Source of the DNA: Bacilli bacterium
Lineage (GTDB): Bacteria; Bacillota_I; Bacilli_A; ML615J-28; CAG-698
Reading direction: 5' to 3'
Length of the DNA: 64,000 nucleotides
Assembly (NCBI GenBank): GCA_045577945.1
Contig: JAZNJG010000142.1
Span: 1,516 to 65,515 of the forward strand
Made by a program: the position numbers and the translations under genes. The notes beneath the pieces were generated by a model. That model was not told where the DNA came from. It saw only the letters and a list, made by a program, of their open reading frames with translations, and did not search any database. Shown here piece by piece: positions 5,929 to 38,412 of this stretch (position 1 is the stretch's first letter; the number at the start of each line of letters is the position of its first letter).

Positions 5929-5962
5929 AATTATTTATTTCTGTATAATTTTCATAAATTAG

Positions 5963-5991
5963 TTGATTATATTAAAAATTTATTATATATT
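5963..5991 (+). promoter_or_regulatory. early sigma70-like promoter
   Basis: TTGATT-17-TATATT; shared 27-nt motif 'ttgattatattaaaaatttattatata'. Confidence 0.55.
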
Positions 5992-8099: not shown

Positions 8100-8137
8100 T
8101 CAAACATTCAATATTAAATTTAATCTTGAATGTTTAT
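8100..8137 (-). other. imperfect 14-bp hairpin at the 3' end of the TnpB-like gene
   Basis: 'aaacattcaatatt aaattt aatcttgaatgttt' (one mismatch); overlaps the stop codon. Confidence 0.45.
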
Positions 8138-9322
8138 TTTTTGTACATTTAATAAGTTTTGATAATTAAATGTATGGTTAAACCATAACAACCCATATTG
8201 TTTTGCTATATTGACAGCTGAATTAATATCCCTATCAATAAAAACAGAAGGAAGAATTTCAACAATTCTATTATATAGATTTGACTTGAATTCAATTTTA
8301 TCAGTCATGCAATTTAACTGACTCGTATATGATTCATTTACTGGTATAAATTTGATATTGTTTAGTTCAGCTTTATACTGAATGAAACTCTTAAATCTAC
8401 TCAATAATCCTTCATTTTGAGTTGATTTATTTAATTTACATTTATAATTCTTTTTACATTTTTTAGTTTGAATGTCTCCTACAATAATGTTATCTATGTT
8501 TTTAGATCTACATTCATCAATAATAAATTTTGATGTTTTGTGTAAATAATCTTTTCTTTTATTTGTTAATTTTTGTTGTTTTCTTTGTTTTGTTTTAAAT
8601 AATTTTAAATATTTGTTTGAACCTTTAACTTTCTTTGATAATTTAGATTTAATACTATTAATTTGTTCTTCTAAACTTTTAAATCTTTTAGTTTGAATTT
8701 TGATACAGTCACCATTTGATTCATATATAGAAGCAATGGATGAAACACCTAAATCAATAGACATAAAATTATAATTATATTCTTTTTCTTTCTTTTGTTC
8801 AGAATAAACAAAAATTAAATAAATATCTCCATTTTCATATAGTTTGAAAACTAATTGTTTAATCGTATCAATATTGATTACATTTGTATCATAATAATCA
8901 CAATTAGATAAATCTATGTTGATTTTGGGTTTATTAATTTGTATTTGTTTGTTAATAAATTTAAAACCACCACCAATATAAATTTTATCACCTCTTTTTT
9001 GAATATTGGCATCTAATAAAATTGGAGAATAAACTCTTTCATTTTTAGGATATCTGGCTGTTTTATCTTTCTTTTTCTTAGTAAAGTATGATTTTACTGA
9101 ATTAATAACCTCTCTACTGACATTTTGAGTATGTTTAGAATGGAGTTTGTTTTCTTTGGCAAAATCTTTAGTTATTTGATGAATTTTATTAAAATCGTTA
9201 TTTTCTTTGAGATTTTGCAAACATAAATTATAAACAGTTGATAGTGATATTGAATACTGTTTTAATAATTCAATATCACTATCATTTAGAAAACTATTTA
9301 TTTTAATTCTTTTTACTAACAT
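8120..9322 (-). CDS. TnpB-like (IS200/IS605 OrfB family) RuvC-like nuclease without the canonical zinc finger
   Basis: RuvC-I 'FMSIDLGVSSIA'; RuvC-III 'YTSQ...DRDINSAVNIAKQ'; N-terminal helical region as in OrfB proteins; no adjacent TnpA; the CxxC...CxxC insert is absent. Confidence 0.55.
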   Translation of the reverse strand: MLVKRIKINSFLNDSDIELLKQYSISLSTVYNLCLQNLKENNDFNKIHQITKDFAKENKLHSKHTQNVSREVINSVKSYFTKKKKDKTARYPKNERVYSPILLDANIQKRGDKIYIGGGFKFINKQIQINKPKINIDLSNCDYYDTNVINIDTIKQLVFKLYENGDIYLIFVYSEQKKEKEYNYNFMSIDLGVSSIASIYESNGDCIKIQTKRFKSLEEQINSIKSKLSKKVKGSNKYLKLFKTKQRKQQKLTNKRKDYLHKTSKFIIDECRSKNIDNIIVGDIQTKKCKKNYKCKLNKSTQNEGLLSRFKSFIQYKAELNNIKFIPVNESYTSQLNCMTDKIEFKSNLYNRIVEILPSVFIDRDINSAVNIAKQYGLLWFNHTFNYQNLLNVQKINIQD

Positions 9323-9460: not shown

Positions 9461-11491
9461 GTGTATCTAATAATGGATTTAATGAATGATTTATTTGGGA
9501 TTGATGAATCGGAAGATAAAATTATTTCTCTTCTTAAAAGATGTGATGATTGTTATAACAACTCTAATTGCTATTACATATTAAACGAACAAGATGTTAG
9601 TATACTATCAGATATGTCATTAAATTATAATTGTAATATAGAAGTTACTGATGATATTTATGATGAAATCTATTTTAATATTAAATCAAAATATCCTAAC
9701 AACACATACTTCAATAAAGTTGGTTCAAATGTTAAGTCAGGAAAAATAAAATTAGATATACCAATGGGCTCAGCAAGTGAATTAAAAAAAGGTGATTGGG
9801 ATAAATGGAAACTACCAATTGAGTATGTAATTAGTAATAAATTAGACGGAGTATCATGTAGGCTTTATTATGAATATGGTAAATTAGTTAAAGCTGTTTC
9901 ACGTGGAAATGGTTATGAAAGTCAAGATATCACTAAACACGTAATGAAGATTAAAAATGTTAAAAAGCAATTAAATCAAAATATTAATATTAAAATTAGA
10001 GGTGAAATTATCGTTCCAAAAACTAATATTAATTTAATGTTAGATGAAATTGAAAATGAAACTGGTGCGAGACCAAAAAATCAAAGAAACTCGGTTAGTG
10101 GTTTTATTAATAGTAAAAATGGTGTTGATTCAGTCGCAAGAAATGTTAATTTTATAGCTTATAAAATTGAAGAATGGGGTAAATCTGAATATGAGATGTT
10201 TAAGTATCTAGAGCATGAACTAGAATTTGATACAACCGAATATCATTTAATAGATGGTAATTATACTGAAGAGAAGCTAGTTAATATATTAAAAGATGTA
10301 AAAGATAACTATACATATGAATGTGATGGATTAATTATTACTCAAAATATAACTCAACCTGGTTATGAAGGTTATGAAACAAATTCTATCAAAAGAAAGT
10401 CAAGTCGAAAGTTTAAAGTTGGTTTAAGTGATAATATAACTACATCAGAAGTTATCAGTATTAATTGGAATATTTCAAAAGATGGTTTATTTAAACCAGT
10501 AGTTCAAATCAAACCTGTACAATTAGCAGGAGTAACAGTTACTCAAGCAACAGGTCATAACTATAAAAATATTATAGATAATAGAATTGGTAAAGGTGCA
10601 ATTATTACAATATCTCGCTCAGGTGAAGTTATCCCGTGGATTCAAAATGTTATTAAACCGTGTGAAGATAATATTGATAATTATGACTTACCGAATTCAC
10701 AATTATATAAAATATCTGGTGTTGATATTAAATTTACAAATATTATAACAGAAGATGATTATGATATAGATAGTGAAGTAAAATTTTACAGAAAAGAGCA
10801 AAATATTAAAAAATTAGTTTATTTTTGTAACTGTTTAGATGTGGAACAAGCTGGAGATGGTAACATTCGTAAATTAACCAATAATAAAGATCTAGTTGGT
10901 GAGAGTTTAATACCTAAAATATACAGTATTAAAGATTTAATATTAGAGCCAGTTGAAACATTTATATCAACTATAGGTGTTAACGGTCGATTATTTTATA
11001 ATTCATTACATCAAAAATTAAAAGAATGTACTGAATCTCGATTTTTTGATGCAGTTGGTTGTTTTGGAAGAGGTATTGGTGAAACAAAATTAGATAAAAT
11101 ATATAATAGATATCAAACATTAAATGTATCTTTAGAACAAGTTTTATCAACACCAGGTTTTGCTGAAAAAACATCTGAACAATATAATAATCATATGATG
11201 AATTATTTTAATTGGGTTGACTGGTTAAACAATAATAATATTCATTTAAAAACACCTGATTTATATAGCGGTGAGTGTAGTGATTTAAGTGTATGTTTTA
11301 CTGGTGTTCGTGATTCAAATATAGAGAATTTTATTAAATTAAATGGTGGTAGAATTGTATCAAGTGTAACGAAAGATTGCAATTTACTAATATGCGATTC
11401 ATTAAACAGTAATTCAGGTAAAATGAAAAAAGCTATAGAAAAACAAATTGAAATTATTAATTATGAAGAAGCGTGTAGGAGGTTTTGTTAA
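9461..11491 (+). CDS. ligA: NAD-dependent DNA ligase (LigA family)
   Basis: adenylation motif 'NKLDGVSCRLYY'; 'SRGNGYESQDIT'; 676 aa with a C-terminal BRCT-like region. Confidence 0.85.
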   Translation: MYLIMDLMNDLFGIDESEDKIISLLKRCDDCYNNSNCYYILNEQDVSILSDMSLNYNCNIEVTDDIYDEIYFNIKSKYPNNTYFNKVGSNVKSGKIKLDIPMGSASELKKGDWDKWKLPIEYVISNKLDGVSCRLYYEYGKLVKAVSRGNGYESQDITKHVMKIKNVKKQLNQNINIKIRGEIIVPKTNINLMLDEIENETGARPKNQRNSVSGFINSKNGVDSVARNVNFIAYKIEEWGKSEYEMFKYLEHELEFDTTEYHLIDGNYTEEKLVNILKDVKDNYTYECDGLIITQNITQPGYEGYETNSIKRKSSRKFKVGLSDNITTSEVISINWNISKDGLFKPVVQIKPVQLAGVTVTQATGHNYKNIIDNRIGKGAIITISRSGEVIPWIQNVIKPCEDNIDNYDLPNSQLYKISGVDIKFTNIITEDDYDIDSEVKFYRKEQNIKKLVYFCNCLDVEQAGDGNIRKLTNNKDLVGESLIPKIYSIKDLILEPVETFISTIGVNGRLFYNSLHQKLKECTESRFFDAVGCFGRGIGETKLDKIYNRYQTLNVSLEQVLSTPGFAEKTSEQYNNHMMNYFNWVDWLNNNNIHLKTPDLYSGECSDLSVCFTGVRDSNIENFIKLNGGRIVSSVTKDCNLLICDSLNSNSGKMKKAIEKQIEIINYEEACRRFC

Positions 11492-12045
11492 ATATGTCAA
11501 ATGAAAAAGAGATAGTATATAATTATATTAAAAACGATGATGTCTATATACTGGGTGAATTTGATAATACAGTTTCTCAAAATATAATTGCCCTACTACC
11601 ACAAATTATTGAAAGTAAGATAAATCAAAAGCATGCTGAAATTAATTTCTATATTAATTCTTGTGGTGGTCAAACAGATATATTATTTTCTCTATCATAT
11701 TTTATCGAAAAAGCTAAACAAGCTGGTATTACTGTTAATACCCATGTTATTGGTGATGCTTTTTCAGCTGGTAGTTATCTTGCAGTACAAGGTAATTATA
11801 GGTATATGAATAGATATAGTAACCAGTTAATGCATTTTGGTTGGGTTCCAACTGTAGCTGAGACACCAAAACAACTAGAAAGAAATCATAAAATGGTTAA
11901 TGATCATTTTAATAATTTAGTTGATATCTATTTAAAATATACTAAATTAACAAAAGCACAAATAAAACAGTTTATGAATGATGATAATTGTTACTTGAAT
12001 GCAGAAGAATGTTTAAAATATGGATTAATTGATGAAATTATTTAA
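11485..12045 (+). CDS. ClpP-like serine peptidase (S14 family)
   Basis: 'INSCGG' (cf. INSPGG); 'GDAFSAGSYLAVQG' with a Ser nucleophile; 'MHFGW' His. Confidence 0.6.
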   Translation: MLNMSNEKEIVYNYIKNDDVYILGEFDNTVSQNIIALLPQIIESKINQKHAEINFYINSCGGQTDILFSLSYFIEKAKQAGITVNTHVIGDAFSAGSYLAVQGNYRYMNRYSNQLMHFGWVPTVAETPKQLERNHKMVNDHFNNLVDIYLKYTKLTKAQIKQFMNDDNCYLNAEECLKYGLIDEII

Positions 12046-13003
12046 AGGAGTAGTTAATATGAGTGGTTTTACTGAAAAGACAATTAAAGCAATCTGTAGA
12101 AATAAAATTGACGATTTATGTAAGTATATTGCTAAAGATGATGAAGATCTAGCTAAAGAATTTAAAAAGCATTGCTTTATTTCAGGTGGTGCTATCACTT
12201 CATTATTACAAGGAGAACAACCAAACGATTTTGATATCTATATAGATAATATAGACACTTTATATAAGATTTGCGAATTTTATACAAATCAATGGAATAA
12301 CAATCATAAGACTAAAAGAGAATTTAATATTATTAAACATATTGAAGAAGATGAACATAAACACGTTGAAATTCAAGTTAAATCATCTGGTATTGTAAAA
12401 GATAGTGATGTTGAAGATCAAGATGAAATACCTTTACCAGCAAAAGAATTAGTTGACGATATTGATAATATAGAAGAAGTTCATAGCAAAAAGTATATTA
12501 TAAAATGCATTACATCTAACGCGTTAAGTTTATCTGATGATATCCAGATTATATGTAGATTCTGCGGCACACCAAATGAAATATTTAAAAATTATGACTT
12601 TATTCATACAATGCAAGCTTATTATAGGTTTACTGATGATTTAATATTAAATACTAAATCATTAACATCTATTATGGCTAAACGCTTAGAGTATAATGGC
12701 TCGTTATTTCCTATATGTTCATTATTTAGATTGAGAAAATTTCTACAGAGAGGTTGGACGATTAGTTCGATGGAAATTTTGAAAATTGCATATCAAATTT
12801 CAAAATTAGATTTAGATGATGTTAATATATTAAAAGAACAACTATGTGGCTGTGATTTTGCATATATGATGGCATTTTGTAATGCATTACATAATTGGAG
12901 AGAAGAAAATCCTGATATAGAATTTAATAGTGAGTACATGTTTGAGTTAATCGAAAAGGTATTCGATAAAGACTATTCATTAGGTGATGAAGATGGTGAA
13001 TAG
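12029..13003 (+). CDS. hypothetical protein with a Pol-beta-type nucleotidyltransferase motif
   Basis: 'FISGGAITSLLQGEQPNDFDIYIDN' fits hG[GS]x9-13DhDh. Confidence 0.3.
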   Translation: MMKLFKGVVNMSGFTEKTIKAICRNKIDDLCKYIAKDDEDLAKEFKKHCFISGGAITSLLQGEQPNDFDIYIDNIDTLYKICEFYTNQWNNNHKTKREFNIIKHIEEDEHKHVEIQVKSSGIVKDSDVEDQDEIPLPAKELVDDIDNIEEVHSKKYIIKCITSNALSLSDDIQIICRFCGTPNEIFKNYDFIHTMQAYYRFTDDLILNTKSLTSIMAKRLEYNGSLFPICSLFRLRKFLQRGWTISSMEILKIAYQISKLDLDDVNILKEQLCGCDFAYMMAFCNALHNWREENPDIEFNSEYMFELIEKVFDKDYSLGDEDGE

Positions 13004-13391
13004 AATAAAACAACTATTGAATTGGTTATTAATAAAATTATTCCATACAGATAAACAACCAATTCAATCTGTTGTCAATACAACTAAACATTATAATGAT
13101 CAAACCCTAGGTCAAAAGAAAAATAAATTTCATAAGCGACTCGATCGTTTATGGAAAAATAAACATACTACTAGAGGTAATGTTTATTATTTAATGACAA
13201 AAGAATATGGAGAACAATTTCATGTTTCAAAATTAAAAACTAATTTAGATTTTGTGAAAGCATATAACTGCCTACAAAAAGTTGAAAATCATATACGTAC
13301 AAATAAAATTATAAGTGATGCTTATAATGATCCTAGAATAATACATGTATTAAATAAGCCATTGAAAAGAAAGGTAAAAAAATTTAAATAA
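12984..13391 (+). CDS. hypothetical basic protein (135 aa)
   Basis: Lys/Arg-rich ORF overlapping the preceding gene. Confidence 0.4.
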   Translation: MMKMVNRIKQLLNWLLIKLFHTDKQPIQSVVNTTKHYNDQTLGQKKNKFHKRLDRLWKNKHTTRGNVYYLMTKEYGEQFHVSKLKTNLDFVKAYNCLQKVENHIRTNKIISDAYNDPRIIHVLNKPLKRKVKKFK

Positions 13392-13410
13392 AAAAAAATA
13401 AAAATTTTAG

Positions 13411-13439
13411 TTGATTATATTAAAAATTTATTATATATT
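13411..13439 (+). promoter_or_regulatory. early sigma70-like promoter upstream of the rIIA-like gene
   Basis: identical 27-nt motif as at 5963. Confidence 0.55.
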
Positions 13440-16877: not shown

Positions 16878-16926
16878 TTATGAAGATACGAAATGGTTGG
16901 GTAGGAAATAGTTCATCTAGTAGTTT
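16878..16926 (+). repeat. 49-bp perfect direct repeat, copy A1 (5' end of paralog 1)
   Basis: identical to 20506..20554. Confidence 0.85.
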
Positions 16927-17284
16927 TGTTTTATATGGCTACATGATAGATATAGAAGAAGACAGTAAATTAAAAGATAAGTATAAAGCAAATATTTTAA
17001 GTAATGATATAGAATTTGATAAGTATGATTTTGATAACTGGGTATGTGATCAAATTCAACCTAATAGTGATGATCTACAACTCGAAGTTTATCATGGACT
17101 CGATAATTATGGTAGTGATACTATTTTTATTGGATTGTATCCTGATAAAATGAAAGATCAAGAAACAAAAATTCATTTTAAACAGAAGGTTACTAATTTA
17201 ATTAATGATAACTTTAAATTATATGGTAACGAGATGATATGTGTTGAAGACATACAAATGTATAGTGATGAGGGTTACGATTAA
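16880..17284 (+). CDS. 'MKIRNGWVGNSSSSSF' family protein, paralog 1
   Basis: conserved 16-aa N-terminus shared with the ORFs at 20499, 22213 and 31293; 5' DNA identical to the 20506 copy. Confidence 0.6.
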   Translation: MKIRNGWVGNSSSSSFVLYGYMIDIEEDSKLKDKYKANILSNDIEFDKYDFDNWVCDQIQPNSDDLQLEVYHGLDNYGSDTIFIGLYPDKMKDQETKIHFKQKVTNLINDNFKLYGNEMICVEDIQMYSDEGYD

Positions 17285-17616
17285 TGGAGAATCTAAATCT
17301 AATAGAAGCAAACGAGTCAATTCTAATTGCTGATGATAATTTTCAAGTATATAATTTATATTCTGCTGAGGATTTTAATTTAAAGCAACTAGAAAGTAAA
17401 AAAAATGTATTGACAACTTTAGAGATAAATACTTATAAATCTCGTATAGGAATAATTTCAGGTTCAAATGAATCAAGTGATTTTATAAGTATAGTTTCAA
17501 TGCCAGTTTTACTAGAAGGTAAAACTCAAATTAAAGTAAATGTTTATAACAATAGTTATTTCAAGGGTATCAGTATAAAGAAAGGTGATATTCTTGGTAC
17601 AATAACAATAGGATAA
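17284..17616 (+). CDS. hypothetical protein (110 aa)
   Basis: ORF; start overlaps the previous stop (ATGA). Confidence 0.4.
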   Translation: MENLNLIEANESILIADDNFQVYNLYSAEDFNLKQLESKKNVLTTLEINTYKSRIGIISGSNESSDFISIVSMPVLLEGKTQIKVNVYNNSYFKGISIKKGDILGTITIG

Positions 17617-17634
17617 TATGAAAGTGTAATAGCA

Positions 17635-17826
17635 ATGTCTGTTCTCAAGCTCATATATTGGATACTTGTTGAAAATATATGGTGCCGTATAAACGGTCAT
17701 CGATTTATAGTTGTAAAAGATATTAAAATATCTGATCCAACTATACCATTTGATGGTGTGCAAATATTAAATTGTACTCATTGTAAAAAATCGAAAATGG
17801 CTTGGTATATTAATACGAAAGAATAA
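17635..17826 (+). CDS. small Cys/His-containing protein (63 aa)
   Basis: C..H...C..HC..SK pattern. Confidence 0.3.
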   Translation: MSVLKLIYWILVENIWCRINGHRFIVVKDIKISDPTIPFDGVQILNCTHCKKSKMAWYINTKE

Positions 17827-17853
17827 AAGTTTATTACAATTGACTAGTTTTTA

Positions 17854-17885
17854 GAAAATTCCAAAAGCAGAGGTTTTTGGAATTT
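17854..17885 (+). terminator. hairpin terminator
   Basis: 12-bp stem 'aaaattccaaaa/ttttggaatttt'. Confidence 0.45.
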
Positions 17886-18002
17886 TCGTTTATATGAATG
17901 TTTATTTTTCACATCATTCATTAGATCTGTATTGAAAAGAAAATAATATTGAATATAATTTTAGATAATACATTTTTTAATATGAATTGAAAGGCAATAA
18001 AA

Positions 18003-18845
18003 ATGAGTATTTTAATTTGTGAAGATTTCGCAAATACACTTCAAGGCGAAGGAATGAGATGTGGTTATCCATCACTTTTCATTCGTTCATTTGGTTGTAA
18101 TTTGTGCTGTGTTGGGTTCGGACAACCTGATCCTTCAAACCCAAAAACATATCATAAAGTTGACTACGATTTAGATATTTCACCAAAATATGGTTGTGAC
18201 TCACCAAAAAGCTGGCATCAAAAATTTAAAAACTTATGTAGAGAATATAAAACAGGTAGAGAATATTTAGATTATTTAATTAAAACATATGGTTATAGAT
18301 GGCTACAAGAGATTGTTATTACTGGTGGTGAACTATTAATATATGATGATTTTTATGTAGATTTCTTTACTGAATTAAAGAAAGAATATGATAATAGTAA
18401 TTTTAATGATTTTATAAATGTAACATTTGAGACTAATGGAATTATTCAACCTTCAGAACAATTAGTAAATGTTTTAAGTGAAATATGTTTTAAAGTCCTC
18501 TGGTCAATATCACCTAAACTAAATTGTGTTGCTGGTGTTGATGAAAACAAATCAATTAATATTGAAACATTAAGAAATTATGCGAGAATGAGAAATGAAG
18601 GTTTTTGCAAAATTCAATTTAAGTTTGTATATAATGGTGATGAAAGAGCTTTAAATAAAGTAAAAGATATCGAATGGCAATTAGGAAGTGATATACTTCC
18701 TACTGATATCATGCTAATGCCTGTAGGTGCGTGGGAAAATACTTTAGAATTAAAACAAAAAACATTTCAAGTATGTGTAGAAAATGGTTATGTAATGACG
18801 CAAAGATTACATGTTGAATTGTTTGGTGCTAGAAATGGAATTTAA
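18003..18845 (+). CDS. queE: QueE-like 7-carboxy-7-deazaguanine synthase (radical SAM), atypical Cys spacing
   Basis: N-terminus 'ICEDFANTLQGEGMRCGYPSLFIRSFGCN' matches the QueE signature E.F.T.QGEG...G....F.R..GC; cluster motif reads CNLCC...CDS rather than CX3CX2C. Confidence 0.55.
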   Translation: MSILICEDFANTLQGEGMRCGYPSLFIRSFGCNLCCVGFGQPDPSNPKTYHKVDYDLDISPKYGCDSPKSWHQKFKNLCREYKTGREYLDYLIKTYGYRWLQEIVITGGELLIYDDFYVDFFTELKKEYDNSNFNDFINVTFETNGIIQPSEQLVNVLSEICFKVLWSISPKLNCVAGVDENKSINIETLRNYARMRNEGFCKIQFKFVYNGDERALNKVKDIEWQLGSDILPTDIMLMPVGAWENTLELKQKTFQVCVENGYVMTQRLHVELFGARNGI

Positions 18846-18874
18846 TTATTAGATATGAAAGGTGTATTTAAAAT

Positions 18875-19381
18875 ATGAAAATTCGTAAATTATTTAAATT
18901 CGAAGCAAGTCATATAGTAAGAAATTGTTCCAGTGAAAGATGTAAATATTCTGTGCATGGTCATAGCTATCGTGTAGAAGTATTTTTAACATCTGATAAA
19001 TTAGATAACGGGCAGATGATATATGATTTTGGTTTAATGAAACCTTCTGTAGGTAAATTTTTAGATAAATTTGATCATTGCTGGCATTATTGGAATGTTG
19101 AAAGCGAAGAATTTAAACAGTTCGTTCAAAATACAAACCAAAGATGGATTGAATTACCATTTTCGCCATCAGCAGAAAACTATGCAATTTATTTTCTTAA
19201 AGCTATAAATTATATTTTAGATCACAATGAAATGAAGAATGGAGAGGGTAATGTAAAATGTGTAGGGGTGAGAGTACACGAAACTGACACTGGATACGCA
19301 GAATCCGAATTAAATGATCTAAAATGGCATGATTATTATAATTTAGAAGATATCAAATTTTCACAAGAATTATCAAATTAA
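18875..19381 (+). CDS. queD: QueD (6-carboxy-5,6,7,8-tetrahydropterin synthase)
   Basis: 'KFEASHIV...CKYSVHGHSYRVEV' is the QueD/PTPS Cx3HGH zinc motif. Confidence 0.7.
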   Translation: MKIRKLFKFEASHIVRNCSSERCKYSVHGHSYRVEVFLTSDKLDNGQMIYDFGLMKPSVGKFLDKFDHCWHYWNVESEEFKQFVQNTNQRWIELPFSPSAENYAIYFLKAINYILDHNEMKNGEGNVKCVGVRVHETDTGYAESELNDLKWHDYYNLEDIKFSQELSN

Positions 19382-19406
19382 AAACACAGTCAAAAAGGAA
19401 ATTAAT

Positions 19407-20381
19407 ATGGGAAAAATTACAACTGATAATTTACCAGATATGCAAAAAACACAAACAGGTTTTCATAAAAAAGGAATTGAAAAAGTTGGTGTAAGATGTA
19501 TCAATTCATACATTCCTATCCAAATGAAAGATGGTAGTGTTCAAAAACCGCTAGCTATTATTTCATCTTATTGTTCGTTAGATGAAAATACTAAAGGTAT
19601 TAATATGAGTCGTATTTCAAGAACTATTAATAAGGTTCTCTCTACAGAATCATCTGGGGATGGTTTTAGAGATTTAGAGAGATTTGTAAAAGAATTAAGA
19701 GACGCACATCAATCTCCTGATATTTATATTAAAGCTAAATTTCAATTATTATTAAATGATAATTCACCAATGTCTGAATTATACTCACAAGAACCAGTTA
19801 AAGTTGTTATTGAATCGCAGTATCGAAATAATGAGTATAAAACATTTTTAACAGTTGAAACAGTTGAAATGTCATTATGTCCTTGTTCAAAAACAATGTC
19901 GCTTTTGATTAATAACACTACAGAAGATGAGAGAAAAGAAATAGATAAATTACCAGAATTGCTAAAAAACAAAGTACTACAAAGTGGATATGGAGCTCAT
20001 AATCAAAAATCTTTTATTAAAGCTACTGTTGAACTTAATCCAGATACAAAAGAAGATTTATGGATTGAAGATATAAGATCAATGATTCAAAAAGCTTCTT
20101 CCTGTCCTTCTTACTCAGTATTAAAAAGAAATGATGAAAAATTTGTGACAGAAGTTTCCTATATGGGTGGTTATTTTGATGACGATAAAAACTTTAATAA
20201 AATTGAAGGTGCTGGACCTAAATTTGTAGAAGATATTATTAGAGATTTGTCGTTTGAATTAGATAATGAATTAGATAAAACAATTAAAGATTATGTCTTA
20301 GTTTGTAATAATCAAGAAAGTATCCACAGTGGAGATATTCAAGCAACTTCAATTTTATCTGCTGGTCGTAGTCTAAAATAG
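19407..20381 (+). CDS. putative GTP cyclohydrolase (FolE2/MptA-like) or another deazapurine-pathway enzyme
   Basis: co-operonic with QueE/QueD; 'EMSLCPCSK' Cys pair; family assignment not verifiable here. Confidence 0.35.
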   Translation: MGKITTDNLPDMQKTQTGFHKKGIEKVGVRCINSYIPIQMKDGSVQKPLAIISSYCSLDENTKGINMSRISRTINKVLSTESSGDGFRDLERFVKELRDAHQSPDIYIKAKFQLLLNDNSPMSELYSQEPVKVVIESQYRNNEYKTFLTVETVEMSLCPCSKTMSLLINNTTEDERKEIDKLPELLKNKVLQSGYGAHNQKSFIKATVELNPDTKEDLWIEDIRSMIQKASSCPSYSVLKRNDEKFVTEVSYMGGYFDDDKNFNKIEGAGPKFVEDIIRDLSFELDNELDKTIKDYVLVCNNQESIHSGDIQATSILSAGRSLK

Positions 20382-20408
20382 ATAACACACTACATATTAA
20401 AAGTTAAT

Positions 20409-20446
20409 AAAGAAGTATAAATTTTAGTATACTTCTTTATTTTTAT
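20409..20446 (+). terminator. terminator after the deazaguanine operon
   Basis: 11-bp stem 'aaagaagtata/tatacttcttt' + 'atttttat'. Confidence 0.6.
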
Positions 20447-20498
20447 GTTGATTTATTAACTTTTTAATATATAATATGATTAAAATATATAAAAGGAG

Positions 20499-21032
20499 TT
20501 GAATATTATGAAGATACGAAATGGTTGGGTAGGAAATAGTTCATCTAGTAGTTTCATTATAGTTGGTGGTAGTATTGATTATGATGGTCGATCCTTATCA
20601 TTTGATGAATTTGTAAAAAAATATCTAGAAGATTGTATATTTGGTAATTGGTTTGAATACGATCTACAAGAGTATGATACTCCTGTTTATTTTTGTGATG
20701 ATGATAAATTTGCAGAATATTTTATAGATGCGTATAAAGTAATATTACCTGAAAGTTGTCGAGGGAAGTATAAAAAACTCAAAGATATGATTTTAAATGT
20801 AAAGCATACTGATAAGAATTATCTTACTAAAATACAGGAGCGTGATAAAATTAAAGAAGAAATTACTAGGTATTGTAGTCAGTTACTAAAACCATTATTT
20901 CAAGATAAAGATATCAATATATATTGGGGTAGTGACGATACATATGTTGGTGATGTAAATGAAGAAAAATATGTTAGAGACTTGTATTATGATTCAAGTG
21001 CTTTTTATAAAAAAGAGTTTAATAATCATTAA
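20499..21032 (+). CDS. 'MKIRNGWVGNSSSSSF' family protein, paralog 2
   Basis: identical N-terminal 16 aa and identical 49-nt 5' DNA to paralog 1. Confidence 0.6.
   Translation: MNIMKIRNGWVGNSSSSSFIIVGGSIDYDGRSLSFDEFVKKYLEDCIFGNWFEYDLQEYDTPVYFCDDDKFAEYFIDAYKVILPESCRGKYKKLKDMILNVKHTDKNYLTKIQERDKIKEEITRYCSQLLKPLFQDKDINIYWGSDDTYVGDVNEEKYVRDLYYDSSAFYKKEFNNH
20506..20554 (+). repeat. 49-bp perfect direct repeat, copy A2 (5' end of paralog 2)
   Basis: identical to 16878..16926; the two copies bracket the QueE/QueD/FolE2-like genes. Confidence 0.85.
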
Positions 21033-21049: not shown

Positions 21050-22120
21050 ATGAATAAATGCGTTGTTTTTGATAATGGTAAGTTTAAGTTTCTAAGATCA
21101 CTAGTGTTTAATTATAATTTAAATAAAAGTAATGGTTATATGGAAACTTGGGGTAAAACAAGAGACGAAGATCCTGAATTTTGTCCTTTTGGACCTGTTA
21201 TTGCTGATATAGAGATAACAACAATTTGTGGTGGGGTCGATCCTAAATTTGGTCCATGTAAGTTTTGCTATAAAGCAAATACACTAAAGGGTAATAATAT
21301 GAGTTTTGAAAATTTCAAAACAATTTTCGATAAACTACCTAAAACATTAACCCAAATTGCATTTGGAACTGATGCTACTTTAACATCCAATCCAGATATT
21401 TGGAAAATTATGCAATATAGTAGAGATAATGGTGTTATGCCTAATGTGACAGTTGCTAATATTGATAAAGGTACTGCTGAAAAACTATCTAAGCTTTGTG
21501 GTGTTGTTGATGTTTCAAATTATGGTGAGATTTTTGGAAAACAATATTGTTTTGATTCTGTTAAGAATTTAACAGATACTGGAATGAAACAAGTAAATAT
21601 ACATCAATTATTATCAAGTGAGACATATCAACAATGTTTAGATCTATTGGATAGCAGAGTTAAAGATGAGCGGTTAGAGAAATTAAATGCAATTGTATTT
21701 TTATCACTAAAACAAAAGGGTAGAGGTATCAACTATCATCCTATGACTCAAGATCAATTTAACGTTATAGTTGATAAAGCATTTGAATTAGGTGTTAGTA
21801 TTGGTTTTGATTCTTGTAGTTCATTAAAAGTGTTTAATTATTTGAAGAATAAAAATGATAAGCAAGATTTAACTCAATTTATCGAGCCTTGTGAATCTTC
21901 TTTATTCTCAATGTATGTAAATGTTGAGGGTAAATATTTTCCTTGTTCATTTACAGAAGGAGAACAAGAATGGAAAGAAGGTTTAGATATTTTGAATTGT
22001 GATGATTTTATAAAAGATATTTGGTATCATGAAAAGACTAAAACTTTTAGAGCTAAATTATTAAACACACAAAAAACAAACTGTCATAATTGTAGACACT
22101 GTCCAATGTTTAAAATATAG
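21050..22120 (+). CDS. Cys-rich Fe-S (radical-SAM-like) protein candidate
   Basis: 'ITTICGGVDPKFGPCKFCY' Cys triad with extended spacing; C-terminal 'CHNCRHCPMF'. Confidence 0.3.
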   Translation: MNKCVVFDNGKFKFLRSLVFNYNLNKSNGYMETWGKTRDEDPEFCPFGPVIADIEITTICGGVDPKFGPCKFCYKANTLKGNNMSFENFKTIFDKLPKTLTQIAFGTDATLTSNPDIWKIMQYSRDNGVMPNVTVANIDKGTAEKLSKLCGVVDVSNYGEIFGKQYCFDSVKNLTDTGMKQVNIHQLLSSETYQQCLDLLDSRVKDERLEKLNAIVFLSLKQKGRGINYHPMTQDQFNVIVDKAFELGVSIGFDSCSSLKVFNYLKNKNDKQDLTQFIEPCESSLFSMYVNVEGKYFPCSFTEGEQEWKEGLDILNCDDFIKDIWYHEKTKTFRAKLLNTQKTNCHNCRHCPMFKI

Positions 22121-22188: not shown

Positions 22189-22260
22189 AGTATTTGCTTA
22201 GGAGAATATTATATGAAAATAAGAAACGGTTGGGTAGGAAATTCAAGCAGTAGTTCATTT
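22189..22260 (+). repeat. 72-bp perfect direct repeat, copy B1 (RBS + 5' end of paralog 3)
   Basis: identical to 31272..31343. Confidence 0.85.
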
Positions 22261-23046
22261 ATTCTATTACTAGATAATCCAGAAAATCGTGAAGAATTTG
22301 AAACATGGTTTGAAGATTGTGGTTATAGATCAAAAGATGAAAATGAAAAGATAGAAAAAATTAAATCTACAATTAATAGTGTAAAGACATTGTATAACAA
22401 TAATAGTATATCTTTTGATGATGCAAATACTATTATTGATAGTATGAGAGATACTATTAAAGATATTCCAGGAGTTTTTCTATTTAATAATTCAATAGAT
22501 AATTGTCTGCTGATAGAAAATAATATATATTATAGTGAATTTACATGTGAAAAGGTTATGGATCTTTTATGGGATGCCTGGAATAAACAAGGTATAGCTA
22601 ATTGTAGTGAATCTGAATTTTGTAAAGAAGATAATATTCGAGTATTTAATAAAATAGAAGATTGGAAAGAGCAATTAGATGATAAGAATTCATACTTATA
22701 TCAAACAATTCAAGAAGAAGTTGAAAGAGGATTACGGGATAATTTAGATTATAAGATTAATGGAGATAATATAAATCTAAAATATCGCGAATATCATTGT
22801 TTTGATGACACTATATCAGTGTATGATATAAGTGATAGTAAATCATATAGAGATTTTATCGATATGCTAACACAGCAAAAAATCGACTACATTCGTGGTG
22901 TGTTACTAGATGATTATAAGAATCTTAATTGTTATGTAATTACTTTCTGTTCAGATGATGGTGAATCAACAGATTTTGACTACATAGGAAGATCAGGATA
23001 TATATTCAGAGACACTCTTTTCTGTATTCGTAATGAAAATAGTTAA
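22213..23046 (+). CDS. 'MKIRNGWVGNSSSSSF' family protein, paralog 3
   Basis: 72-nt 5' region identical to the paralog at 31293. Confidence 0.6.
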   Translation: MKIRNGWVGNSSSSSFILLLDNPENREEFETWFEDCGYRSKDENEKIEKIKSTINSVKTLYNNNSISFDDANTIIDSMRDTIKDIPGVFLFNNSIDNCLLIENNIYYSEFTCEKVMDLLWDAWNKQGIANCSESEFCKEDNIRVFNKIEDWKEQLDDKNSYLYQTIQEEVERGLRDNLDYKINGDNINLKYREYHCFDDTISVYDISDSKSYRDFIDMLTQQKIDYIRGVLLDDYKNLNCYVITFCSDDGESTDFDYIGRSGYIFRDTLFCIRNENS

Positions 23047-27037: not shown

Positions 27038-27508
27038 ATGTCAAATTTAAATAGACTTTTAGATAATACTATGCTCGCTTTTTTAGGAGGTAATGGTATT
27101 TTTGATGAATTAAATTTTTCGAAAAATATTGAAAATAGATTTACAAGTGTAAACTACCCACCTTGCGATATTAAAAAAATAGAATATAAAAATGATATAT
27201 GTGGTTATATTATTGAGTTAGCACTAGCTGGGTTTAAAAAAGAAGATATTAATGTAAGTGAATTTGAAGAAAGAGGTATCAGATATCTTCATATTGATAA
27301 TAATATTTCAAAAGAATCTACACCAGAAGATAGTGAATATAATACCACATATATTAAAAAATCAATTTCAAGAAAACAATTTTCTTTAGATTTTCAAATT
27401 TCAAATGAATTAGAAATCGCAGATGCTAAAATGGAGAATGGATTACTATCTATTAAATTAGATGTGATGAACACATCTTCTTCATCAAAACGCATTGAAA
27501 TAAAATAA
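27038..27508 (+). CDS. small heat-shock protein (Hsp20/alpha-crystallin family)
   Basis: alpha-crystallin-domain-like 'IIELALAGFKKEDINVSEFEERGIRYLHID...FSLDFQISNELEIADAKMENGLLSIKL'. Confidence 0.6.
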   Translation: MSNLNRLLDNTMLAFLGGNGIFDELNFSKNIENRFTSVNYPPCDIKKIEYKNDICGYIIELALAGFKKEDINVSEFEERGIRYLHIDNNISKESTPEDSEYNTTYIKKSISRKQFSLDFQISNELEIADAKMENGLLSIKLDVMNTSSSSKRIEIK

Positions 27509-27519
27509 TCATTATAATA

Positions 27520-27566
27520 AAATAGAGTTATAGTTAAAATATACACTATAACTCTATTTTTAATTT
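27520..27566 (+). terminator. terminator after the Hsp20 gene
   Basis: 15-bp stem 'aaatagagttatagt/actataactctattt' + T-run. Confidence 0.6.
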
Positions 27567-27583
27567 ATATAAAGGAAATTATA

Positions 27584-27832
27584 ATGTTGTATCGTGTTAT
27601 TGGTAAAAGATTACTACTTGAACAGCAAGAAGATGATTCAAAAGGTTTAATTTATAATCAAGATTTACAAGCATATAAAGTATTAGATAAGGGAAAAGAA
27701 GTCGAAGAAATCAATATTGGTGATATTATTATTGCTAATAAACAAAACGTTATCACAACTAAATTTAAGCAAGATACAATTAAAGTTATTAGTGTTGATA
27801 ATGTTGTGTGTTATATATCGCAAGGAGAATAA
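27584..27832 (+). CDS. GroES-like co-chaperonin
   Basis: 82 aa immediately upstream of GroEL; 'YRVIGKRLLLEQQEDDSKGLIY' fits the GroES mobile-loop region pattern. Confidence 0.45.
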   Translation: MLYRVIGKRLLLEQQEDDSKGLIYNQDLQAYKVLDKGKEVEEINIGDIIIANKQNVITTKFKQDTIKVISVDNVVCYISQGE

Positions 27833-27835
27833 GTA

Positions 27836-29467
27836 ATGGTTGAATTAGTTGATATAGAGAAAGGAAAAGAAGCTAGAGAATTAATTCTTAATGGGGTTAA
27901 AAAACTAGTCGATTCAGTTTCTTGTACTATGGGAGCTGCTGGAAGAAACGTCTTAATTGAAAAACCATTTGCTAAACCTATTCTCACTAAAGATGGTGTT
28001 TCTGTTGCAAAACCTATATATTTAGAGAATAAATTTGAAAATATGGGTGCCCAGCTTGTAAAAGAGGTCGCTCAAAAAACAGTTGATGAAGTTGGTGACG
28101 GAACTACAACAGCAACAGTTTTAACAGGTGCTCTATATGAAAATTCTATTGAATATTGTAATAAAGGATTCAATCCTGTTAAAATTAAACGTGGTATTGA
28201 GAGTTATAAACATGAATTAATTTCTTATTTAGAAGAAAATAAAAAAACTATTAACAGTAGAGAAGATATTTTTAATGTTGCTAATATATCTGCAAATGGA
28301 GATAATGAAATTGCAGATGTAATTACAGAAGCAATCGATATTACAGGTGTTGATGGTGTTGTCACAGTTGAAAATTCATCTACTACTTTAACCAATATAG
28401 AATATACAGAAGGTTTGCAGTTTGATTGTGGGTATGTATCACCATACTTTATCAATAATCAAAAGAAACTTAATTTTGAAGCAGAAAATTGTTACTTGTT
28501 AATAATTTCTGGTCATGTATATACTTTTGATGAATTGGCGGACCCATTAACACTTGCACTACAAAATAATAAACCTATTGTAATCATTGCAAATGATTTT
28601 AGTCAAGATGTTATTAATACTTTAGTTAAGAATAGATTGCAACAAAATCTTAAAGTGTGCGCAGTAAGATTACCATATTATGGTGAAGAAAGAGAAGAAT
28701 TTGCTGAAGATTTATCAATTGCACTCAGTTGTCCATATTTAAATACTAATATGAAAGAAACTATTCGTGATAATAGTTTATCTAAGTTAACAGATGGAGA
28801 TAATAATTATATTTTAATTGATAAAATTACTGTTGATAAAAACACTATTACTTTCATTAATGAAAATAAAAATCAAGCTGATTTAGATAATCGAATTGAA
28901 TATATTAAATCAAAATTAAATAATTCTAAATCACCTGTTGAACAAAATACATTAAGAGATCGATTGTCTAAATTAACCGGATCAGTTGCTATTATTAAAG
29001 TCGGTGGTGCTTCTGAAATTGAAGTTCAAGAAAAGAAAGATCGAATTGATGATGCACTACATGCAACTAAAGCATCTATTAAAGAAGGTGTAGTTATTGG
29101 TGGTGGTATGGCTTTATTGAAAGCTGTAAATAGATTAGTTAAAAATCATAGAGATGAAACGGATAGAGAGAAAATAGTAGCAATGGATATTTTAAAGAAA
29201 TCTTTAATTAAACCAGCAACAACTATTTTATCAAATGCAGGTTATGATAGTGATTTATTATTTGATAATGAGATTATTGAAAATAATAATATTGGTTATG
29301 ATGTATCTAATAGCGTTATTCAGAAAGTTGATATGTTTGAGCAAGGTATTATAGATCCTATATTGGTTACAAAAACAGCTCTTTCTAATTCAATTTCTGT
29401 TGCTGGTTTATTAATGACAACAGAAACAGCTATTGCATTAAAAAATCAAGAAAACGATATTGTATAG
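27836..29467 (+). CDS. groEL: GroEL-type chaperonin (Hsp60)
   Basis: 'AAGRNVLIEKPFAKPILTKDGVSVAK', 'GDGTTTATVL', 'IIKVGGASEIEVQEKKDRIDDALHAT'. Confidence 0.9.
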   Translation: MVELVDIEKGKEARELILNGVKKLVDSVSCTMGAAGRNVLIEKPFAKPILTKDGVSVAKPIYLENKFENMGAQLVKEVAQKTVDEVGDGTTTATVLTGALYENSIEYCNKGFNPVKIKRGIESYKHELISYLEENKKTINSREDIFNVANISANGDNEIADVITEAIDITGVDGVVTVENSSTTLTNIEYTEGLQFDCGYVSPYFINNQKKLNFEAENCYLLIISGHVYTFDELADPLTLALQNNKPIVIIANDFSQDVINTLVKNRLQQNLKVCAVRLPYYGEEREEFAEDLSIALSCPYLNTNMKETIRDNSLSKLTDGDNNYILIDKITVDKNTITFINENKNQADLDNRIEYIKSKLNNSKSPVEQNTLRDRLSKLTGSVAIIKVGGASEIEVQEKKDRIDDALHATKASIKEGVVIGGGMALLKAVNRLVKNHRDETDREKIVAMDILKKSLIKPATTILSNAGYDSDLLFDNEIIENNNIGYDVSNSVIQKVDMFEQGIIDPILVTKTALSNSISVAGLLMTTETAIALKNQENDIV

Positions 29468-31271: not shown

Positions 31272-31343
31272 ATTTGCTTAGGAGAATATTATATGAAAAT
31301 AAGAAACGGTTGGGTAGGAAATTCAAGCAGTAGTTCATTTATT
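31272..31343 (+). repeat. 72-bp perfect direct repeat, copy B2 (RBS + 5' end of paralog 4)
   Basis: identical to 22189..22260. Confidence 0.85.
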
Positions 31344-31745
31344 TTAGTTGGTGAATATCCACAAGAACTTGTCAATCAAAAAGGTAGTCGTTGGTTATAT
31401 AAATTAGAAGGTGAACAAAGAGAACGTGCACTTCGATTTGCAAAAGATGAAATTGAGAATGGTGATGAATACAGATGGTTTGATAACAATGACGAAAGAA
31501 AAGAATTATTAGATAGTAACAAAGATGTATACTTAACTTCATTTTTATCTGATAGTGGTGATTTATTTGATATAGTGTGTAATTTGCCAAACTCATTCCA
31601 TCTTGAAGAAGGTGGGCACGGCTATCCTTATGATGAAGAATGTTTTGATGAATTGGTTGAAGATGAGATTTGGTTAAGAAACGAAGAAAAAACTAAAACT
31701 TATTGGGAAGAAATCGATAGATTTAGTGAAGAAATTGAAATGTGA
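31293..31745 (+). CDS. 'MKIRNGWVGNSSSSSF' family protein, paralog 4
   Basis: 72-nt 5' region identical to 22189..22260. Confidence 0.6.
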   Translation: MKIRNGWVGNSSSSSFILVGEYPQELVNQKGSRWLYKLEGEQRERALRFAKDEIENGDEYRWFDNNDERKELLDSNKDVYLTSFLSDSGDLFDIVCNLPNSFHLEEGGHGYPYDEECFDELVEDEIWLRNEEKTKTYWEEIDRFSEEIEM

Positions 31746-31758: not shown

Positions 31759-32007
31759 TTGAAAGGTAATAACATGTATATTAAATATGTATTTGGTATC
31801 TTAATTATTATATTATTAATTTTTATGTTAATTAGATTTTGGGTTAATATATTTAATTCTGAAAAGAAAACTCATATTAGCGATAGAATTAATCATATAG
31901 ATAAGATTAATAAATTAGCTAAGAAAGTTAGAGCTAGTAAGAAAAAATATAAAAACTATAAGTCAAGTAAAGATGTAATTGATGAATTTATGAAAGGTGA
32001 AAAATAA
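31759..32007 (+). CDS. small membrane protein
   Basis: hydrophobic helix 'VFGILIIILLIFMLI'. Confidence 0.4.
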   Translation: MKGNNMYIKYVFGILIIILLIFMLIRFWVNIFNSEKKTHISDRINHIDKINKLAKKVRASKKKYKNYKSSKDVIDEFMKGEK

Positions 32008-33182
32008 TGTTTGAAGATTTTTTTTATGACGAAGATGGTAATATTCGTATGAAACGTGTTATCGGTGTAATAGTAACATTAGCATTTATTATTGCCTCGT
32101 TCCTATTATTTGATGGGGTTTGGGAGAATAATAAGGCATCAAACTATCAAATTAAACAGGCTGCAGTTTCTGGTAATTTAAGTGTTAAAAATGATGCTGG
32201 TGTATATGTTAAGTGGTTTGGTGATATTACTACATATCGAAAAGTATCTAGTTTAGATTTTGAAGAAGAAAATATTAAAGTTAGATTTAATGATGGTTCT
32301 GAAGCAGGTATCAAAGGTAAAGTAACATTTAGATTACCTACAAATCCTGATTTACAGAAAAAACTACATATTGAATATCATGATTTTGATAACGTTGTTA
32401 AAAATTTAATTAAACCTAATGTAGAAGAATCATTAAAACAAGCAGCAACATTAATGACAGCTGAAGAATCCTATTCTTCTGGAAGAACCAATTTTATTAG
32501 TGCTGCCGAACAACAAGCTAAATTAGGTATTTTTAAAACAATTTCTAAAGAATCAGATTCTGAAGATGGAACAGTAAAGAGAACAATTCGTGTAGCTTTT
32601 GATAGTAACGGAAATCCAATTATTCAAAAACCTACAATGTTAAAAGAATATGGTATTGAAATCACACAATTTACAGTGTCTGATTTTGAATTTGATGATG
32701 TCGTTAAAAATTTAATTGCTGAAAAGAAGAAGAAAGAACAAGAACAAGTAGTATCACGTTCTGAAGCTGAAAAAGCAAAACAAGAAGCAATTACAGAGAA
32801 AGAAAGAGGTGAAGCTCGTATTGCTAAACAAAGAGCAGATTCTGAAGTAATTAAAACAGCTGCTGTTATTGAAGCTCAAAAGAAAGCAGAGGTTGCGAAG
32901 CTTGAAGCTGAGCAAGCAAAATATGAAGCACAAAAAATTAGAGAACAAGGTGCTGCAGAAGCGTATGCTAATGAATTAAAAGTAAAAGCTGGTTTAACAC
33001 CATTAGAAAAAGCTCAAATTGAAAAAGAAACAAAAATCGGTATTGCACAAGCACTATCCAAAGTACAATTCCCATCAAGTATGGTTATTTCAGGTGGATC
33101 TAATAGCGGTACAAATCCATTTGATGCTGTTGGATTACAATCATTATATGAATTATCTGAAAAAATGTCTATAAAGAAATAG
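32007..33182 (+). CDS. SPFH/band-7 (prohibitin/HflK-like) membrane protein
   Basis: N-terminal TM segment; long Ala/Glu/Lys coiled-coil region typical of SPFH proteins. Confidence 0.5.
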   Translation: MFEDFFYDEDGNIRMKRVIGVIVTLAFIIASFLLFDGVWENNKASNYQIKQAAVSGNLSVKNDAGVYVKWFGDITTYRKVSSLDFEEENIKVRFNDGSEAGIKGKVTFRLPTNPDLQKKLHIEYHDFDNVVKNLIKPNVEESLKQAATLMTAEESYSSGRTNFISAAEQQAKLGIFKTISKESDSEDGTVKRTIRVAFDSNGNPIIQKPTMLKEYGIEITQFTVSDFEFDDVVKNLIAEKKKKEQEQVVSRSEAEKAKQEAITEKERGEARIAKQRADSEVIKTAAVIEAQKKAEVAKLEAEQAKYEAQKIREQGAAEAYANELKVKAGLTPLEKAQIEKETKIGIAQALSKVQFPSSMVISGGSNSGTNPFDAVGLQSLYELSEKMSIKK

Positions 33183-34079: not shown

Positions 34080-34108
34080 GGGAGGAAATAATTTCCTCCT
34101 TTTTTATT
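34080..34108 (+). terminator. terminator; same hairpin sequence as 44059
   Basis: 'ggaggaaataatttcctcc' + 'ttttttatttttttat'. Confidence 0.6.
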
Positions 34109-38210: not shown

Positions 38211-38297
38211 GGAGGCGTGCTGTAAGTGGTAGCCAGATCAGACTTAAAATCTGAGGGAGATTTCTCCGTGTGGGTTCAAGTCCCTCCGCCTCTACCA
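38211..38297 (+). tRNA. tRNA-Leu(TAA), long variable arm
   Basis: cloverleaf; anticodon loop 'cuUAAaa'; 3' CCA encoded. Confidence 0.75.
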
Positions 38298-38323
38298 TTT
38301 TAATAAATAATTACATAACAAAC

Positions 38324-38399
38324 GCCGACATAGCTCAACTGGTAGAGCAACTCACTTGTAATGAGAAGGTTGGGAGTTCAAGTCTCTCTGTCGGCACCA
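38324..38399 (+). tRNA. tRNA-Thr(TGT)
   Basis: acceptor gccgaca/tgtcggc; anticodon loop 'cuUGUaa'. Confidence 0.65.
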
Positions 38400-38412
38400 T
38401 TATTTTTTTTTT

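Follow-up and report, generated by a model that had tools for sequence, protein, structure and literature searches.

The closest described counterparts of the locus analyzed here are the 7-deazaguanine systems of large phages and the bacterial preQ0/queuosine pathway with its YhhQ salvage route. In the established preQ0 pathway, FolE2, QueD and QueE chemistry leads from GTP to 7-carboxy-7-deazaguanine (CDG) (PMC5699537, PMC6884629). Among phages, every one with these modifications was found to carry a DpdA, and DpdA3 phages that lack QueC (phiST, Campylobacter) fully replace deoxyguanosine (dG) in their DNA (PMC10516641). This report concerns a three-gene operon of this kind at positions 18003-20381 of a 64,000-nucleotide stretch of contig JAZNJG010000142.1 (assembly GCA_045577945.1, filed under a Bacilli bacterium), which is called the window throughout. 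The operon encodes a QueE-like protein, QueD and FolE2 and lies in the genome of an AT-rich T4-like myophage. It is predicted to make CDG from GTP, an assignment that is well supported by homology for the enzymes and by the established pathway for the chemistry.

Like the phage systems surveyed in PMC10516641, the locus comes from a large phage and pairs a GTP cyclohydrolase I with QueD and a QueE-like protein of the same PHROG. Unlike them, it uses FolE2 (GCYH-IB) in place of FolE, and the window contains YhhQ and none of DpdA3, DpdL, QueC*, DpdM or DpdN. With the bacterial pathway and its salvage route it shares the enzymes of steps 1-3, the transporter family and a long, bacterial-type QueD. 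It differs from that pathway in the absence from the window of QueC, QueF, tRNA-guanine transglycosylase (TGT), QueA and QueG, and in that its genes are phage-encoded and make up a transcription unit of their own, of early type. The cassette represents the known deazaguanine system in a FolE2 version.

The deazaguanine operon

The operon and the elements immediately around it are as follows.

17284-17616, plus strand: open reading frame (ORF) of 110 aa without a Pfam or PHROG match, preceding QueE in all relatives
17635-17826, plus strand: Cys-containing ORF of 63 aa, kept between the 110-aa ORF and QueE in relatives
17854-17887, plus strand: terminator-like hairpin upstream of the operon, 15-bp stem, -17.9 kcal/mol, z -5.4
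17932-17959, plus strand: sigma-70-type promoter-like site TTGAAA-16-TATAAT (11/12), 44 nt 5' of QueE, a consensus match only
18003-18845, plus strand: predicted QueE-like radical-SAM 7-carboxy-7-deazaguanine synthase, 280 aa (phrog_2076)
18875-19381, plus strand: predicted QueD, 6-carboxytetrahydropterin synthase, 168 aa, long bacterial type (Pfam, NCBIfam, 7v0f)
19407-20381, plus strand: predicted FolE2, GTP cyclohydrolase IB, 324 aa, with two insertions (PF02649, motifs)
20406-20441, plus strand: terminator-like hairpin after FolE2, 14-bp stem followed by UUUUUAU, -17.4 kcal/mol, z -3.6

The original prediction, made from the sequence without database searches, had read the ORFs at 18003-18845, 18875-19381 and 19407-20381 as QueE-like, QueD and FolE2-like genes that together form a preQ0/CDG precursor pathway, as known in phages that replace dG with 7-deazaguanine derivatives. 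Coordinates and profile matches confirmed the three gene calls, with QueD matching PF01242 and the QueE-like protein matching phrog_2076, and family and motif matches agree with the pathway. In this scheme, FolE2 would convert GTP to dihydroneopterin triphosphate, QueD would convert the latter to 6-carboxytetrahydropterin (CPH4), and the radical-SAM enzyme QueE would turn CPH4 into CDG. Because no QueC is present, the predicted end point is CDG or a CDG derivative.

The QueE-like protein matches the phage family phrog_2076, annotated 'QueE-like', over its full length (1.9e-38). It retains the QGEG motif and the cluster cysteines in alignment with 5tgs and 6nhl, and is ∼30% identical to QueE of Vibrio, Campylobacter, Cellulophaga and halovirus phages. 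QueD matches PF01242 (6.6e-24) and TIGR03367 (1.3e-17), and its full-length match to the solved CPH4 synthase 7v0f (4.7e-49) includes the Cys...HGH segment. It is 47% identical to an Acinetobacter protein. The best 'phage' match to QueD, L004 (CAKLQF020000009.1, 'Acinetobacter phage MD-2021a'), was rejected: the record is a mislabelled bacterial chromosome contig that carries lpxK, rpsA, pyrF and type II secretion genes, and the match is therefore bacterial.

FolE2 matches PF02649 at 5.7e-56 and keeps the motifs SLCPCSK, GAHNQ, KRxDEKxVTE and ESIH when compared with the solved structures 2r5r, 8g6c and 3d2o. Only three weak FolE2 matches were found by tblastn among 50,697 phage records, a FolE2-seeded search of viral contigs returned no relatives, and the enzyme is not mentioned in the main surveys of phage deazaguanine systems. 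Because FolE2 is nearly absent from phage records and surveys, yet is used in all four sister loci, its substitution for FolE is a variation on the known pathway that characterizes the clade.

The genes are separated by gaps of 29 and 25 nt, both with a Shine-Dalgarno-like sequence. With its own promoter-like site and a hairpin on both sides, 18003-20381 is a discrete unit. The 110-aa ORF and its Cys-containing neighbour of ∼63-75 aa always lie 5' of QueE in the clade (L001, L008, L009, L131, L133), and the pair stays with QueE even where QueE is apart from QueD-FolE2. These two proteins could be accessory to QueE.

Purpose of the operon

Modification of the phage DNA is the best-supported purpose of the operon, unproven for this genome; we put its probability at roughly 0.55. 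After replication, a DpdA3-type guanine transglycosylase with its gene beyond the window would swap the deazaguanine base into the phage DNA, and the modified base would protect the DNA from restriction. This use is judged the likeliest because sister phages have DpdA3 right beside QueD-FolE2.

DpdA3 had been detected by HHpred only (PMC10516641), and since it is too divergent for Pfam, the phiST protein was fetched for a dedicated search. A hidden Markov model (HMM) of 76 sequences (75 homologs plus phiST) recovers the gene on the sister contig L008 at 3e-114, and a profile search over 5.8 billion proteins yielded 341 homologs. The L008 gene, on a contig of 93 kb, is a 262-aa ORF beside FolE2 (L008:3559-4347) and a full-length member of phrog_19058 (5.6e-36), which phiST DpdA3 also matches, collinearly with the L008 ORF. 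Its product shares 38% identity (2e-48) with a Flavobacterium phage immuto_2-6A protein annotated 'DNA guanine transglycosylase' and ∼35% with a Campylobacter CP220-group protein. The same order recurs in L008, L131 (a 174-kb contig), L133 and L134: UvsW...QueD-FolE2-(N6/N4 methyltransferase)-DpdA3-AAA_28-NrdD-...-110 aa-∼75 aa-QueE. At least nine relatives of 160-178 kb carry DpdA3.

In these sister phages, as in immuto_2-6A, DpdA3 adjoins a thymidylate-kinase/AAA_28-like gene (L008:2826-4908, L131:10001-12116, L133:10001-11355, L136:8992-10996), and the two may be a conserved functional pair. An N6/N4 methyltransferase-like gene sometimes stands beside DpdA3 as well.

Several observations weigh against DNA modification in the window phage itself. 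As the original prediction had stated for QueC and a DpdA-like transglycosylase, Pfam and PHROG scans of the 64-kb window (Pfam on ORFs of at least 90 aa) detected neither QueC, nor TGT, nor a DpdA of whatever type. The window ORFs include no member of the PP-loop or QueC families, and all ORFs of at least 200 aa are otherwise assigned or lie within the tail-fibre block. The window also contains no homologs of phiST DpdL or of the ORFs around QueE in Campylobacter F379 (L002). Single-sequence searches of the window with phiST DpdA3 and DpdL came back empty and were low in power, since they missed the Campylobacter locus too. The DpdA3 HMM found nothing in the window or in the compared 20 kb of its syntenic relative L001 (best E 0.2). 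Furthermore, no DpdA3 among the 120 matches listed or the 20 enumerated clusters lies on the 86,968-bp contig to which the window proteins belong or on the 179,572-bp contig of L001, and the window/L001 sub-lineage may therefore truly lack the enzyme. Over 60 kb separate DpdA3 from QueE in Campylobacter F379, so absence from a 64-kb partial genome is weak evidence.

Three further points stand on the same side. The QueE-like protein falls far under the NCBIfam equivalog cut-offs, with weak N-terminal matches to the bacterial equivalogs, and is therefore placed in the phage QueE-like branch. Promoter-like sites are no commoner in this AT-rich region than in shuffled sequence, which is why the promoter call is a consensus match only. 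Finally, a YhhQ importer, which the window encodes, would be superfluous for CDG-based DNA modification and is better suited to a queuosine role.

It is this transporter gene that makes the supply of queuosine precursors a serious, if unlikely, rival. The YhhQ/COG1738 homolog (33199-33786, plus strand, 195 aa) matches PF02592 at 8.2e-39 and scores 113.7 bits against TIGR00697, above the equivalog cut-off of 50.95 for the queuosine precursor transporter; it lies ∼13 kb from the operon and went unmentioned in the original prediction. Under this explanation the phage has no DNA transglycosylase, and CDG together with preQ0 or preQ1 imported by YhhQ feeds the host QueC, QueF and TGT. Queuosine would then rise at position 34 of tRNAs with GUN anticodons, including the phage tRNA-Asn(GTT) at 38496-38570 and tRNA-Tyr(GTA) at 38675-38760, and the phage would profit from improved decoding of NAU codons, the prevailing ones in a genome with 27% GC. 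Such a role has been proposed for phages with preQ0-pathway genes and no DpdA (PMC6884629), and the absence of DpdA and QueC from the window and the 20 kb of L001, with none on either contig among the matches listed, is consistent with it. However, divergent DpdA3 or DpdA4 proteins were later found in most such DpdA-less phages (PMC10516641), and DpdA3 adjoins these very QueD-FolE2 genes in the nearest members of the clade. A pathway ending at CDG would moreover aid the host only where its own early steps are rate-limiting, and about two-thirds of the genome lies outside the sequence examined. DNA modification keeps its place on the strength of the DpdA3 genes beside QueD-FolE2 in the sister phages.

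A role in pterin or folate metabolism, in which FolE2 and a PTPS-family enzyme would make a tetrahydropterin or folate precursor and not 7-deazaguanine, is very improbable: COG0720/PTPS enzymes are promiscuous in catalysis and hard to annotate by similarity (PMC5699537), and the closest QueD homologs, which are bacterial, bear the annotation 6-pyruvoyl tetrahydrobiopterin synthase, but the genes are co-transcribed with one for a QueE-like CDG synthase and QueE serves deazapurine synthesis specifically, the best solved relative of QueD is named a CPH4 synthase, and the genes are tied to DpdA3 across the clade.

Repeats, tagged proteins and a radical-SAM/SPASM enzyme

Around the operon stand four genes with a common 5' end, two pairs of exact repeats formed by these ends, and a gene for a radical-SAM/SPASM enzyme.

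16878-16926, plus strand: 49-bp exact direct repeat, copy 1 (2 nt upstream and the first 47 nt of paralog 1)
16880-17284, plus strand: MKIRNGWVGNSSSSSF-family paralog 1, 134 aa, typical of the ∼120-aa core family
20506-20554, plus strand: 49-bp exact direct repeat, copy 2
20508-21032, plus strand: MKIRNGW-family paralog 2, 174 aa
21050-22120, plus strand: radical-SAM/SPASM enzyme, 356 aa, partner of the MK.R.GFVSNSSSSSF family (PF13186, phrog_7293)
22192-22263, plus strand: 72-bp exact repeat, copy 1 (21 nt upstream and 51 nt of paralog 3)
22213-23046, plus strand: MKIRNGW-family paralog 3, 277 aa
31272-31343, plus strand: 72-bp exact repeat, copy 2
31293-31745, plus strand: MKIRNGW-family paralog 4, 150 aa

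The perfect 49-bp direct repeat reported earlier is exact (16878-16926 = 20506-20554). The identity extends no further, the copies are 3,628 bp apart, and by our own estimate 49 bp would match by chance in 64 kb of 27% GC with a probability of ∼1e-16. The original prediction placed the cassette exactly between these copies and saw in them the 5' ends of two MKIRNGW paralogs. The copies do flank the operon and are indeed 5' ends; they also enclose the rest of paralog 1 together with the conserved ORFs 17284-17616 and 17635-17826, and the paralogs number four (starting at 16880, 20508, 22213 and 31293). The first 16 residues, MKIRNGWVGNSSSSSF, are identical in all four, and their bodies are unrelated to each other. 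The 72-bp repeat joins paralogs 3 and 4, and its 21 upstream nt include the ribosome-binding site. Exact-pattern searches of viral and genome contigs did not find the repeat. The junction from FolE2 to paralog 2 was seen again on the independent short contigs L006 and L007 and the gene order is kept in L001, so the arrangement is no assembly artefact.

L001 is syntenic with the window gene for gene from the ligase to GroEL, with orthologs 44-81% identical, and has three of the paralogs at the same positions. The first 48 nt were compared between the window paralogs (w1-w4) and those of L001 (r1-r3). The N-terminal peptide is invariant in all seven copies, with differing codons. Non-orthologous pairs within a genome show 1 mismatch (w1-w2), 0 (w3-w4) and 1 (r1-r3), against 5 (w1-r1), 15 (w2-r2) and 15 (w3-r3) for positional orthologs; had the peptide been encoded independently, identity would have a probability of 1.8e-5. 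Copies from IMG/VR behave similarly, with a median of 9 mismatches within a locus versus 13 between loci and identical pairs in 4/70 versus 0.24%. Because the identical copy pairs differ between the window and L001, the identity of the repeats is to be read as concerted evolution, apparently by gene conversion on a strongly constrained peptide, and not as an insertion footprint. The 49-bp repeats are the 5' ends of a four-copy gene family outside the deazaguanine pathway, and the operon is nested in an array of tagged genes.

The suggestion in the original prediction that the repeats mediate gain or loss of the cassette by homologous recombination fares poorly against this comparison, and a mobile cassette is improbable. 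The geometry would suit it: the copies are perfectly identical over 49 bp, in the same orientation, in frame and 3,628 bp apart, and recombination between them should delete the body of paralog 1, the two small ORFs and the operon while leaving paralog 2 intact. The family's 5' ends also show ongoing recombination. Against this, the same paralogs flank the same genes in L001 despite protein identities of only 44-81%, and no empty site was found at the junction among the relatives. In L008, L131 and L133 the genes form two modules, paralog-QueD-FolE2 and 110 aa-∼75 aa-QueE, with ∼7 kb between them and no pair of flanking paralogs. The pairing of identical repeats varies by genome and the second pair, of 72 bp, brackets unrelated genes; identity is therefore a property of the family. 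The GC content of the cassette (28-29%) matches that of its neighbours, and a presence/absence check anchored on the radical-SAM gene returned one distant phage only.

The family itself is large and unannotated. A degenerate N-terminus pattern located at least 120 IMG/VR loci, mostly on contigs of 100-550 kb and often with multiple copies. The 162 family ORFs recovered are 56-300 aa long (median 134), and BLAST sorts their bodies into 52 components unrelated to one another. An exhaustive profile search (E <=1e-3) found representatives of at least 2,778 clusters at 50% identity, mostly 100-140 aa long and aligned over ∼100 positions. The family has no match in Pfam, NCBIfam or PHROGs, two members gave no tblastn match among cultured phages, and no mention of the motif 'NSSSSSF' was found in the literature. 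An AlphaFold2 model of the 16880-17284 product, built from 103 sequences, shows an alpha/beta domain (predicted local distance difference test score, pLDDT, 84; predicted template modelling score, pTM, 0.79) with no significant structural neighbour. Tag residues 1-11 are modelled at low confidence and the N-terminus is disordered in the model. In the 120 motif-seeded loci the family is not linked to deazaguanine genes (QueE in 1, QueD in 1, FolE2, DpdA3 and YhhQ in 0).

The Cys-rich ORF at 21050-22120, which the original prediction had left unassigned, is neither QueC nor DpdA. Its product matches the SPASM domain PF13186 (26.6 bits against a gathering cut-off of 21.5) and phrog_7293 (7e-103), with the cluster motif Cx9CxxC at C60-x9-C70-x2-C73 and C-terminal SPASM cysteines between residues 281 and 351. 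Its profile matches SkfB (1.3e-4) and BtrN (3e-3); a single-sequence search of the PDB was empty, and profile matches to pentatricopeptide-repeat proteins were rejected as repeat artefacts. The protein is 44% identical to 'radical SAM' proteins in 173 enterobacterial T4-like phage records. Those phages are not known to modify their DNA with 7-deazaguanines.

Enzyme and family were found to be linked from both directions. Among the 120 motif-seeded IMG/VR loci (L011-L130), 49 contain a homolog of the enzyme, on the same strand as the nearest family gene in 48/49 and at a median gap of 872 bp; control genes occur in 0-1 loci. Conversely, the core motif (MK.R.GFVSNSSSSSF, position 5 variable) is present in 67 of the 80 enzyme-seeded loci (L137-L216; 84%) in 1-12 copies, and was absent from ∼160 kb of control loci. 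All family genes there are on the strand of the enzyme (245/245), 170 downstream and 27 upstream. Exceptions to the pairing include the enterobacterial T4-like genomes, and Citrobacter phage Miller has no motif near its radical-SAM gene. Because the linkage holds in both seeding directions, the 'Cys-rich ORF' and the genes with the repeats form one conserved module of their own, within which the operon is nested in the window/L001 lineage.

The linkage, the leader-like conservation pattern and the disordered tag together suggest a function for this module. It is possible, if still short of probable, that one radical-SAM/SPASM enzyme post-translationally modifies an invariant, disordered, Ser-rich tag on hypervariable proteins, as a phage system of its own. 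The nearest parallel is with clusters of the ribosomally synthesized and post-translationally modified peptide (RiPP) type that have a radical-SAM/SPASM maturase (nearest solved enzymes SkfB, BtrN and PqqE). As there, one SPASM enzyme is co-located with genes that share a segment (in 49/120 and 67/80 loci), being followed by 1-12 same-strand genes whose products share a conserved N-terminal segment and are otherwise hypervariable. RiPP precursors are short peptides, whereas the partners here are 56-300-aa proteins predicted to contain a folded alpha/beta domain; conservation is confined to ∼16 residues at the extreme N-terminus; and the tagged family lacks a Pfam, NCBIfam or PHROG match.

The internal-protein genes of T4 offer a second parallel. 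Their products vary but share an N-terminal sequence for capsid targeting, and the DNA that encodes it can serve as homology for recombination between genes. The tagged family differs from them in its motif, in having no identified prohead-protease cleavage site and in its linkage to a radical-SAM enzyme. The enzyme-plus-tagged-protein module appears to be undescribed and the most interesting lead from this locus.

The phage and what its locus means

The source of the window is an AT-rich T4-like myophage. The GC content is 27.4%, and the T4-type core comprises the clamp loader gp44, RegA, NrdD/NrdG, an NAD-dependent ligase, a Dda-like helicase and rIIA/rIIB, together with gp15, a tube protein resembling gp19, and proteins of the baseplate and fibres. 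No cultured phage has a clamp loader more than 38% identical to this one, Pelagibacter phage Mosig and the cyanomyophages coming nearest, and blastn found no nucleotide match to the region among the 50,697 phage records. The phage is assigned to an uncultured T4-like lineage.

The window holds several other features. A protein-quality-control set consists of a ClpP-like protease, HSP20, GroEL and an SPFH/Band-7 protein (11485-12045, 27038-29467, 32007-33182). Among the ORFs of 33787-63672 there is a Pfam match to Acb1, a protein directed against the cyclic-oligonucleotide-based anti-phage signalling system (CBASS). A pair like that of diversity-generating retroelements is formed by an Mtd second-domain protein (34591-35673, minus strand) and a reverse transcriptase (36449-38119, plus strand). 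A 28-bp exact repeat (34081-34108 = 44062-44089) lies just past the 3' ends of two minus-strand ORFs and may be linked to target or template repeats of such a retroelement. Ten tRNA genes (Leu, Thr, Glu, Asn, Tyr, Gln, Pro, Met, Trp and Cys) occupy 38211-41929.

Between the Dda-like helicase and the ligase lies a TnpB/OrfB_IS605-Cas12f-like ORF of 400 aa (8120-9322, minus strand), a homolog of which is also present in L135, a distant phage locus. Two intergenic regions share an exact direct repeat of 33 bp: one copy precedes the ORF at 6015 (5959-5991) and the other lies between 12984-13391 and rIIA (13407-13439). Toward the end of the window, a GMP reductase (61001-62122, plus strand; NF003470 at 483 bits against a cut-off of 397) is directly followed by a GltD-like NAD(P)-binding Fe-S flavoprotein (62122-63213, plus strand). 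This pair amounts to phage-encoded guanine-nucleotide catabolism, which could be linked to guanine turnover or to an AT-rich genome.

The operon adds an uncultured clade of AT-rich, T4-like phages to those with 7-deazaguanine biosynthesis, and this clade uses the zinc-independent FolE2 instead of FolE. A sub-lineage with synthesis genes and a transporter and with no detectable DpdA3 offers a natural comparison with sister genomes that have DpdA3, and the pairing of window and sisters could help to tell a role in DNA modification from one in tRNA queuosine. The repeats, in turn, led to a large unannotated family that evolves concertedly within genomes and shows tight, directional linkage to a radical-SAM/SPASM enzyme. 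Should the tag prove to be modified by this enzyme, the module would be a new kind of phage protein-maturation system, in which RiPP-like leader logic would be applied to folded proteins in thousands of large phages.

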